Shown one piece after another: positions 12,001-15,000 of a DNA stretch of 17,827 bases. The position numbers are program-made. Positions within the stretch are counted from its first letter, which is position 1. Every line of letters begins with the position of its first letter. Origin of the DNA: a virus (Duplodnaviria; Heunggongvirae; Uroviricota; Caudoviricetes); IMG/VR virus record IMGVR_UViG_2778261533_000006, positions 1 through 17,827 of that record; one strand, given 5' to 3'.

Positions 12001-15000
12001 TTTAGTCGTTTAGAAACAAATTATTTTAATGTGGTGTGCTTCGTGACAATAAATTAATAACCAACACACCGGCACAAATCAACATCATGCCTATAATGGC
12101 TGGCAGGTCCAGCCGTTGGCCGAAAAATCCCCATGACAGTAAGCTAATCAGGACAATACCTGACTCCTGACCAGATAGCATAAGCAATCCCTGTAGGAAT
12201 ATAAGCCAGCGTCTGAGCTAATAACCAGAATGATGCACAATAACAAATAATTGTACCAACAGATGGCCATAACCGTGTAAAACCTTCTGAAAACTTCATT
12301 AAGGTTGTACCAATGACCTCTGCAAGTATTGCACCACCAAGATAAATATAAGGGTTCATAGCATATTCTTTCCTGTTCAAACTGGAGAGAATTGTACTAC
12401 AGTTTGAACTCAACTCACCTGTTTCATCATTGTGTTCCCATTGATGTTCTTTTATATACCCTCAGTACCCGTTTCATCGCGGCACTCTGGCGACACTCCT
12501 TAAAAATCAGATTCGTGCTCACCTTTCCTTCCCGTTCTTCTCTGGTAGCGAACCGGTAATACACCGTTCGCCAGACCTTACCATCAACGACCAGGATTCC
12601 TGCCCGCGCCATTTTAGCCGCAGCCTGATTTATGCTGGTTACGGTTGCGCCTGTTACCGCGGCAACGTCCTGTGCACAGAAGCTCTTATGCGTCCCCAGG
12701 TAATGAATAATTGCCTCTTTGCCCGTCATACACTTGCTCCTTTCAGTCCGAACTTAGCTTTGATTTCTGCGATCTTCGCCAGAGCCTGTGCACGATTTAG
12801 AGGTCTACCGCCCATGACAGGAAGTTGTTTTACTGGTTCAGGTATCGCCTCACCACGGTTAATTCGCGCGGTCATACAGGACAGTTCATCGGCAGCGTTG
12901 CGCCGTAATTCCGCGTCAGTCAACGCATTGGCCCGCATGTTCTGATACAGGTTGGTAACCAGCCAGTAGTGCGCGTTTGATTTCCACGGATAAGACTCTG
13001 CATCCGGATACAGACCACGCTTCCGGCAATACTCGTAAACCATATCAACCAGCTCGCTGACGTTTGGCAGCCCGGCGGTAACGGATGCTTCTTCCCGGCA
13101 CCATGCAACAAACTGCCCGGGTGATGGCAGAAATGGTCTATTCTGCCGACGGGCAACACGCATTCCGGCGCTCACCTGTTCCATCGTGGTGATCCCGTTT
13201 TCCCGGAAAGCCAGAACCCACTGGCGGCGGATTTCGTTCAGTTCGTTCTGGTCACGATTAGCCAGGCTCGCCGGGAAAGTTGCCAGTAACTGGCTGAATA
13301 CACCGTTGATTATCTGCGCTACCTGCTGTACCTGCGGCTTTTCGTCGTACTGTTCCGGCATGTTGTTGGCGATCCGACGCATCTGCTCACGGTCAAAGTT
13401 AATCATCTGTGCGGCGATGTTTTTCATAGATCCACCCCGTAAATCCAGTCTGTGTTTGTCAGGTCGAGTTTTGGTTTGCTAGCTGTCACGCCTGCCTGTT
13501 GCTTGTTACGGTTGATTTCGAGTTGGGTCCACTTGTCGCGGAGTTTGGCCGGACTTAGCACGTTACCGGACCAGAAGTTGTCCTGGCATGCCCAGCGGAA
13601 CAGCACGCACATGTCGCGGTGGTTACGTCCGTCACGTTCACGCATCAGGCGGATATCGTTAGCCCACCCTGCAAAATTCGGTTTTCTGGCTGATGGCGCG
13701 ATGGTCTTCACCATGTCAAACATCCACTCTGCGGCGGTCAGGTCTTCTGCTGTCCCCCACTTGCTGCCGCTCTGAATTGCAGCATCCGGTTTCACCACAG
13801 GAAGATCGTTTTCTGGTTGGTCAGAGGATTCGCCAGAATTCTCGGACGAAAAAGGTTTTATATTGTCTTTTGTTAGTTTGTCTTTTGTGTTTACCTGATT
13901 CGGGTAAACGCCTTTACCTGATTTGGGTAAACTTTTTTTACCTGATTCAGGTAAATTTACCTCTTTCAGGTAAACTTTATTTTTCTTACCTGATTCGGGT
14001 AATGTTGACCATTCACTGACCACATTATTAATGCCGGTATTCCGCCCGCTCTGAATAAAAATCCCACGCTTTACCAGAACACTTTTTGCAGCAGAACACT
14101 TGTGCGGCAATATCCCGGTTAATTCGGAAAGTTGCTCGTTGCTAACCCAATCCAGTTTTTTATTAAAGCCATATGTTTTGCGCATGACAGCCAGAAAGAC
14201 CAGAAGCTGGTGCTGTGTTAATCCGGCCAGCATCACAGCTTCCAGCAACTCATTTGCAATGCGCGTATAACCATCATCGAGATCTGCCACGCGCGGCTCC
14301 TTTTGTGCCACATCCGGCACTGGAAAATTGAATATCTCAGCAGTGTTTGCCATAATTCCTCCCGCAATGAGTGCGTTACGATTTGCACCTGAAAGTCGGC
14401 TCTGTTCCCGCAGACCGGCTTTCGCCATTTCTGAGCCTGTCATATTGCCCCCAACATGGTGGTAACCATCGCCATCAATGGACCAGCCAGATGCTGGTCA
14501 AACGCAAAGATGGTACCTGGACTGCATCAGCTAATTTACGCGGACGACTTTATCTGCATCGCGGCATTGAGCGCACTTATACCCGTGACTTGCTCGTGGA
14601 AGTTTTTCTCGACGGACGCGGCAACGGTCTGAATCACTAATCCCCTTTCCTGTTTTCCGAATCAGCCTGGCATTCCGCGGGCGATTTTTTCACAGCCATT
14701 TTCAGGAGTTCAGCCATGAACGCTTATTACATTCAGGATCGTCTTGAGGCTCAGAGCTGGGCGCGTCACTACCAGCAGATCGCCCGTGAAGAGAAAGAGG
14801 CAGAACTGGCAGACGACATGGAAAAAGGCCTGCCCCAGCACCTGTTTGAATCGCTATGCATCGATCATTTGCAACGCCACGGGGCCAGCAAAAAAGCCAT
14901 TACCCGTGCGTTTGATGACGATGTTGAGTTTCAGGAGCGCATGGCAGAACACATCCGGTACATGGTTGAAACCATTGCTCACCACCAGGTTGATATTGAT

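Follow-up and report, generated by a model that had tools for sequence, protein, structure and literature searches.

A single internal deletion as the likely origin of the missing immunity region in a DLP12-type prophage

The subject of this study is a 17,827-nucleotide (nt) stretch of Caudoviricetes DNA (IMG/VR record IMGVR_UViG_2778261533_000006, positions 1 to 17,827; hereafter the window), in which the replication initiator gene O and a short kil-like open reading frame (ORF) diverge from closely spaced start codons with no immunity region between them. Comparison with an intact relative revealed that 2,233 bp have been lost from this position, including the repressor, its operators and the start of the kil-like gene. 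We consider it highly probable (roughly 0.88) that a single microhomology-mediated (illegitimate) deletion in a DLP12-type prophage left this interval as its scar, in the ordinary course of prophage decay. A first-pass annotation of the window had placed the O start at 14353 (minus strand) and the kil-like ATG at 14491 (plus strand), 137 bp apart, and reading of the sequence bore this out. Its view of what had been lost, and of what the remaining kil-like frame might do, required revision.

The window belongs to a DLP12-type prophage at argU

Locus identity and gene order place the window in a DLP12-type cryptic lambdoid prophage at the tRNA-Arg gene argU. Its genes run appY ... ompC-like porin, quuD, rusA, ybcM, ybcL, ybcK, ylcJ, emrE, ren, P and O and then, across the junction, kil', gam, bet' ... 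intD. Both marks of DLP12 were found, namely argU next to intD and the order ybcK-ylcJ-emrE-ren, and the gene order agrees with that of Escherichia coli K-12. Identity to the argU-DLP12 locus of E. coli PSS-07 was 99.97–100%, and to that of E. coli Z0117EC0133 97.6–99.97%, block by block. The end of the window falls inside intD; in the PSS-07 locus, tRNA-Arg and fimZ come after intD.

DLP12 is reported to be the most prevalent cryptic prophage, present in 74% of 638 strains (PMC6379469), and internal deletion of its early region is an already known kind of event. K-12 DLP12 (argU; intD-xisD'-exoD'/peaD'-renD::IS3-emrE-ybcK...) occupies the same integration site as the window, has the flanking genes ren, emrE, ylcJ, ybcK, ybcL, ybcM ... 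intD in common with it and has likewise lost its early/immunity region to an internal deletion. The K-12 deletion is, however, larger and has different endpoints, running from exo to P and joining exoD' to peaD', with O, ori, kil, gam and bet also gone. The window, in which O, P, ren and gam are intact, represents a less decayed stage.

The switch region lies within a 2,233-bp deleted segment

The complete chromosome of E. coli Z0117EC0133 (NZ_CP098183; L005), with its prophage at argU as in the window, served as the intact reference. Its early region begins with O and an 86-nt spacer. Next in order come YdaT (PF06254, 179 amino acids (aa)), a helix-turn-helix protein of the YdaS/Cro type (PF15943, 76 aa) and inverted repeats resembling operators, then a repressor of 229 aa (HTH_3 plus Peptidase_S24) and another set of ACAACC repeats. 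A protein of 68 aa, in the annotation a phage-encoded cell division inhibitor, precedes gam, bet and exo. Pfam searches of the full-length proteins returned YdaT_toxin, YdaS_toxin/P22_Cro and HTH_3 plus Peptidase_S24, the last identifying a cI-like S24 repressor. The window is collinear with this reference (blastn), with an identity of 99.8% on the left, as far as 14492, and of 98.1% on the right, starting at 14491, and the reference segment absent from it (17760–19992) could be mapped to the AT at 14491–14492, so that the deletion endpoints whose mapping had been proposed are now placed. The operator-like ACAACC/GGTTGT repeats, at 18585–18640 and 19580–19660 of the reference, both lie within the deleted segment.

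The arrangement between O and kil in the intact relative is the cI / YdaS(Cro) / YdaT(cII-equivalent) switch type of Rac and CP-933P, prophages of a kind in which YdaT is the functional equivalent of cII (PMC9986795, PMC8630535). In the window this switch is wholly deleted save for the last 16 codons of ydaT. The lambda series cII-cro-cI-rex-N-ral-cIII, which the first-pass annotation had listed as missing, was therefore the wrong set, since its place in the intact relative is taken by YdaT, a YdaS-type Cro and a cI-like S24 repressor.

Searches of the window itself returned no trace of either set. With lambda cI, cro, cII, N, rexA/B, ral, cIII and kil as queries, nothing scored below E = 0.04 (tblastn, six frames, whole window), and the cI-like and YdaS-like proteins of Z0117EC0133 had no match in the window (tblastn). 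ORFs across the O-kil interval (14233–14640) contained no Pfam domain, no direct repeats were present in 14200–14800 and the one inverted pair there was at chance level. An improvised operator pattern, ACAAC-N7-GTTGT, proved uninformative and was set aside in favour of collinearity with the reference and the repeat search. A cI/cro-like ORF or operator repeats were thus looked for in the interval and not found, and the earlier observation that the immunity region is missing was confirmed: tblastn, Pfam and the repeat search detected no repressor, Cro, cII, N, rex or operator in the window.

The junction cuts two reading frames

Base by base, the ydaT side of the reference reads CCAGCCAGAT/CTGGG and the kil side CCAGGAAT/GCTGG, with the slash at the breakpoint, and the window reads CCAGCCAGATGCTGG. 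The AT microhomology sits inside a short patch of imperfect similarity. Both reading frames are cut internally, ydaT at about codon 163 and kil at codon 19, and the ydaT stop codon occupies 14440–14442 (minus strand). On this mapping the 137 bp (14354–14490) consist of the 86-nt native spacer plus a 51-nt ydaT tail, a scar and a spacer, and not the divergent regulatory region that the opposed orientation of O and kil had suggested. Two further deletions in the window relative to Z0117EC0133 also carry 2–4-bp microhomologies, one joining bet' to DUF1382 at ~15376 and the other a 438-bp loss at ~7903.

We also considered whether nothing had been deleted, the window being a mosaic lambdoid phage or satellite naturally without an immunity region. 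Lambdoid phages are mosaic, and the O-ydaT left flank and the kil-gam-bet right flank match different phage sets. Nevertheless, both flanks are collinear with one prophage at that chromosomal site, the join falls inside ydaT and kil, and no phage record has both halves adjacent (of 230 that match, none spans 80% or more of the query), which makes a native architecture very improbable.

The kil-like frame is a truncated relative of Rac KilR

The product of the 49-codon frame that opens at ATG 14491 is 98% identical to residues 20–68 of the 68-aa protein of Z0117EC0133. It matched PHROG 294 with E 2e-22 over profile positions 32–80 of 83, not at full length, and NCBIfam NF008465 'FtsZ inhibitor protein' with E 7e-7 over positions 20–70 of 73, at 29 bits against a curated cutoff of 92; the full-length 68-aa relative, at 63 bits, also fell below that cutoff. 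No family in the local Pfam-A copy matched the 49-aa ORF, and the family was identified via NCBIfam, PHROGs and direct alignment to Rac KilR; a precomputed Pfam match names PF27398 KilR.

Rac KilR (73 aa) is an inhibitor of FtsZ and MreB. The full-length DLP12-type 68-aa protein aligns with it from Met1 to the C-terminal region (36% identity, E 9e-13), and the two genes hold a like position in the leftward early operon. In contrast, the window retains residues 20–68 only, the promoter, ribosome-binding site and start codon being gone. Lambda Kil (47 aa) shares with the KilR-like protein a functional label and a position upstream of gam, and nothing further: it gave no alignment with the full-length 68-aa homologue at E ≤ 100 (BLASTP) and no match in the window below E = 1 (tblastn), and by sequence comparison the two proteins appear unrelated. 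The label 'kil-like' is therefore apt in the sense of the Rac KilR family (PHROG 294, NF008465, PF27398) but not in the sense of lambda Kil.

Nor can the gene be called retained. The deletion carried off the native AGGAG ribosome-binding site, Met1 and the 19 conserved residues of the N-terminus, the native start having lain 57 nt upstream, and with them went the conserved N-terminal segment M-x-x-x-H-(F/Y)-G-T...P-G. ATG 14491 is the internal Met20, and its A and T are the microhomology itself. No Shine-Dalgarno motif was found upstream of 14491, where the sequence is ydaT antisense. The C-terminal region VFLDGRGNGLNH is kept, although it is 3–5 residues shorter than that of KilR and differs from it in sequence. 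KilR is highly toxic; it tolerates a 6-residue N-terminal deletion, its core is a predicted beta-sheet and its C-terminal 12 residues are essential for toxicity (PMC12482147). By analogy, loss of 19 N-terminal residues would cut into the KilR core and leave kil' as a probable pseudogene fragment. The concern that a kil gene without cI control is potentially toxic would be largely answered by deletion of the promoter, ribosome-binding site and start codon.

Intact replication genes and one surviving promoter-like site

The O start codon (ATG 14353–14351, minus strand) has GGGAGGAATT just upstream, a strong ribosome-binding site. Its product is 68% identical to lambda O (E 4e-134), with lambda residues 1–299 covered (tblastn). 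P and ren lie after O on the same strand, and all three are intact reading frames. Some phage records and gene callers use a longer O from an in-frame ATG at 14443 (339 aa). This start was rejected in favour of 14353 because of the strong ribosome-binding site, because the lambda O N-terminus aligns there and because relatives differ by 1–2-nt indels in 14354–14440.

A consensus scan of 12300–17827, both strands, returned one sigma-70-like site, a pO-like promoter, against 5.7 expected by chance. Its predicted transcription start is G14364. The same scan gave no sigma-70-like site upstream of O on the minus strand, and O-P-ren is without a recognisable promoter. The pO-like homologue thus appears to be the single surviving native transcription signal, and it points into the scar. 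The first-pass annotation had described O with its iterons, P, ren and gam as left without a repressor or native early promoters; this was correct for the repressor, pR and pL, but overlooked pO, the one site that the promoter prediction then called for has returned.

Lambda pO (TTGAGT-17-CATAAT) and the window site (TTGAAT-17-CATAAT) have near-identical hexamers and spacing. In both, the CAT of the -10 hexamer is the O start codon read on the opposite strand, with the oop start, predicted in the case of the window, 7 nt further along. As with lambda oop, a short transcript with a strong terminal hairpin, antisense to the rightward operon, is predicted. Lambda oop overlaps the 3' end of cII, whereas the ~69-nt RNA of the window would end at ~14432 in the ydaT-O spacer, before the ydaT stop and without overlap. 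A second difference is the tail of the window element, GCCAUUUCU, which is interrupted and has no U-run.

The hairpin at 14391–14423 had a fold z of -3.5. It was aligned across eight phages and prophages (the window, Z0117EC0133, mEp237, Klebsiella phage 6 LV-2017, SPN3UB, PHB10, CobraSix and Omnitron), and 104 of 104 cells paired, four pairs showing compensatory change. When the 3' partners were slid by 1–3 columns as a control, only 39–45% of cells paired. The hairpin is therefore conserved and covarying. Seven G.U cells fit the plus strand only, so the hairpin belongs to the plus-strand (oop-sense) RNA; action on the rightward mRNA strand, where these cells would become A.C or C.A mismatches, was rejected. 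An invariant GCC and then a U-rich tail follow the hairpin in the eight-sequence alignment. The consensus scan did not call the hairpin a terminator, and Rfam returned no family for the element (gathering threshold across the whole window; E ≤ 10 across 14250–14750).

The pO-like promoter and oop-like hairpin form a conserved part of the replication modules of lambdoid phages from E. coli, Klebsiella, Salmonella, Enterobacter and Citrobacter. The combined element occupies 14328–14432 (plus strand) of the window and 17595–17700 of Z0117EC0133, and occurs in the loci L009–L014.

Distribution of the junction and continuing decay

The junction was absent from all 5,426 complete RefSeq E. coli genomes, and exact-pattern scans for the junction 24-mer found it neither in a species-representative genome collection nor in a metagenome collection. 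Such absence is what an assembly or scaffolding artefact, in which a normal prophage had been collapsed or mis-joined, would produce. However, the exact 24-mer was present in 9/9 loci retrieved from NCBI draft genomes (located via the called 49-aa and 89-aa ORFs), which were independently assembled and sit on contigs of up to 566 kb. The microhomology signature also resembles that of two other window deletions shared with a complete genome. The nine draft loci exclude an artefact, the chance of which we regard as negligible. The 49-aa ORF was indexed in 131 blocks of the assembly collection. Among the 5,426 complete genomes, EC05 was the only one with the 5' ends of O and gam within ~700 bp of each other, and that arrangement arose independently, through a deletion with other endpoints.

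Over the aligned parts of 6 kb the junction loci were 99.8–100% identical to the window, which points to the carriers being a recent clone. Several have been rearranged further. One carrier (L018) is without 13081–13914, an 834-bp deletion inside P/O; a second (L020) has 14645–16587, the gam-to-DUF4222 block, inverted; and a third (L023) is without 16587–17057, a 471-bp deletion into intD. PSS-07 is without 12949–14510, which has erased the junction itself. Judged from these sequences, members of the clone appear to be still decaying, with no sign of O-P maintenance.

The kil-side endpoints of three independent alleles fall within 23 bp of one another, at AT 14491–14492 in the window, GGTA 14509–14512 in EC05 and TAC 14511–14513 in PSS-07, a clustering (n = 3) that was noticed post hoc and with some ascertainment bias. 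A selective filter is possible, in which only kil-destroying deletions survive with pO facing the junction; a local hotspot, built on a GGTACC palindrome and flanking CCWGG sites, is possible too. The EC05 and PSS-07 endpoints lie inside this same GGTACC palindrome, and CCWGG (Dcm) sites flank the breakpoints. A fuller version of the filter is a long shot. Repressor-removing deletions that leave O would put an intact kilR-like toxin gene behind a constitutive pO, so that only those destroying the kil start survive, which would explain three endpoints within the first 27 kil codons; kil'-gam would then be transcribed at a low level, and the oop-like RNA would be an undescribed conserved small RNA family of YdaT-type and other lambdoid phages.

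Proposed one-step loss of repressor, promoters and toxin start

The deletion reaches from the ydaT-like gene (about codon 163) to the KilR-like gene (codon 19). The segment lost, probably in one step, held YdaT, the YdaS/Cro-like regulator, OR/pR/pRM, the cI-like S24 repressor and OL/pL, along with the start at which the KilR-like division inhibitor was translated. We infer that it was tolerable because the repressor, the promoters under its control and the toxin start went together. With pR gone, O-P-ren would have no promoter, and ori would lack the pR transcription that activates the origin in lambda. With pL, the ribosome-binding site and the start codon gone, kil' would be a pseudogene fragment. 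The oop-like hairpin probably stops most pO transcripts ~60 nt before the junction, and the remaining DNA is probably silent and still decaying.

In lambda, O/P mRNA depends on pR transcription, as does the activation of ori-lambda (PMC3985674); cells die when a trapped prophage replicates (PMC3349717), and P is toxic (PMC3640518, PMC4926192). Since O/P/ori activity from a trapped prophage is lethal and P is toxic, one deletion of repressor, pR, pL and kil start would be a survivable kind of event. A similar argument applies to the survivors of 'replicative killing' by trapped lambda prophages, in which loss of the repressor is tolerated only when O/P expression from pR and activation of ori have gone as well (PMC3349717, PMC3985674). 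Those survivors arose under laboratory selection with cI857 prophages, whereas the window is a natural allele to which the argument is carried over by inference.

Four considerations weigh against decay of a silent remnant. The window still has undamaged reading frames for O, P, ren and gam, and near-identity to relatives gives no power to test selection on them. The predicted silence comes from consensus scans, which miss weak, sigma-S-dependent and activator-dependent promoters. The GCCAUUUCU that follows the hairpin has no clean U-tract, and pO may read through into kil'-gam. Finally, the counterpart of the C-terminal tail that is essential in KilR is kept, and kil' could have residual activity if translated from the junction ATG.

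Several of these features are also what would be expected of a domesticated module, in which kil'-gam is expressed from constitutive pO through a leaky oop terminator, the host gains from low-level Gam (which inhibits RecBCD), from a weakened KilR fragment or from both, and O-P-ren is kept for a host or anti-phage function. The pO site has been kept, faces the junction and is similar to a lambda promoter shown by experiment to be active (PMC3985674); the hairpin lacks a perfect terminator tail; gam is complete and has a good ribosome-binding site; kil' retains the KilR-type C-terminal region (PMC12482147); and the allele is found in many assemblies. Yet the 99.8–100% identity among junction loci speaks for a recent clone and not for long maintenance, and the sub-lineages L018 and PSS-07 delete P/O and the junction itself. 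There is no ribosome-binding site before ATG 14491, a further terminator-like hairpin stands ahead of gam, and bet and exo are destroyed. Domestication is therefore improbable, and simple decay following a single deletion remains our preferred explanation.

On that explanation the region should be annotated as the pseudogene fragments ydaT', kil' and bet' flanking a deletion junction, and neither as a divergent promoter region nor as an unregulated toxin gene. The window would represent a clean intermediate in DLP12 decay, from the intact switch through the window allele to the PSS-07 and L018 alleles and on to the K-12 state, and would illustrate how a repressor can be lost safely when its promoters and the toxin start go in one event. 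Beyond annotation, the finding matters little. Its more useful by-products are, first, pO and the conserved, covarying oop-like hairpin, which occur in lambdoid replication modules of the YdaT type and have no Rfam family, and second, the possible clustering of endpoints at the kil 5' end.

Features of the window

Table 1 Coordinates of features around the deletion junction (L005, E. coli Z0117EC0133).
Feature	Position	Strand	Basis
Replication initiator gene O, 309 aa, with five ori iterons at 13891–14003	13424–14353	-	Pfam Phage_rep_O; tblastn with lambda O; iterons by pattern match
pO-like promoter (predicted): TTGAAT, 17-nt spacer, CATAAT with upstream TG	14328–14356	+	Consensus scan and lambda pO geometry
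Native non-coding ydaT-O spacer	14354–14439		Collinear with L005 17621–17706 and phage 1W; intergenic in RefSeq relatives
Predicted oop-like small RNA, ~69 nt, terminal 13-bp hairpin 14391–14423 then GCCAUUUCU	14364–14432	+	Fold and covariation
3' remnant of ydaT-like (cII-analogue) gene: last 16 codons (LAGPLMAMVTTMLGAI) and stop codon	14440–14492	-	Alignment with phage 1W and L005; Pfam YdaT_toxin on full-length relatives
Deletion junction, 2-bp microhomology AT	14491–14492		Base-level mapping against L005
5'-truncated KilR-like gene kil', codons 20–68 of 68	14491–14640	+	Homology to L005 protein, NF008465, PHROG 294
Terminator-like hairpin plus T-run between kil' and gam; native, also in L005	14665–14692	+	Consensus match only
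Intact gam, 98 aa, own AGGAG ribosome-binding site	14716–15012	+	Pfam Gam, E 3e-65
bet'-DUF1382 fusion frame, junction near 15376	15018–15530	+	Pfam RecT residues 24–102, DUF1382 120–167; blastn against L005

Downstream of gam, a second deletion of ~1.28 kb has removed the bet 3' end, exo, DUF1317 and the DUF1382 5' end. It fuses the first ~119 bet codons in frame to the end of the DUF1382 gene, giving a 170-aa chimeric ORF, and is common to PSS-07. Upstream of the 98-aa gam, residues 10–36 of the long (138-aa) lambda Gam match 14622–14702 (tblastn). Since this match is in another frame, the window encodes the short form of Gam only and not the long form.

The 438-bp deletion relative to Z0117EC0133 lies across a GATA microhomology at 7902–7905; through it ybcO and ninE are gone, and ybcN has lost its 3' part. 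The emrE gene (12026–12413, minus strand) appears frameshifted into two overlapping ORFs; the near-identical locus of PSS-07 has it annotated as a pseudogene with a frameshift, and products of 51 aa and 71 aa are called in draft assemblies.

In the tail-fibre-assembly/invertase part of the window, 4098–4296 (minus strand) gave a full-length Rfam match to IS009 (RF02111) at 221 bits, against a gathering threshold of 117. Two 120-bp segments, 1330–1449 and 4101–4220, are ~87% identical and lie in tail-fibre-assembly gene fragments. They flank a Pin-like serine recombinase ORF (3376–3966, plus strand), which suggests the remnant of an invertible tail-fibre segment.

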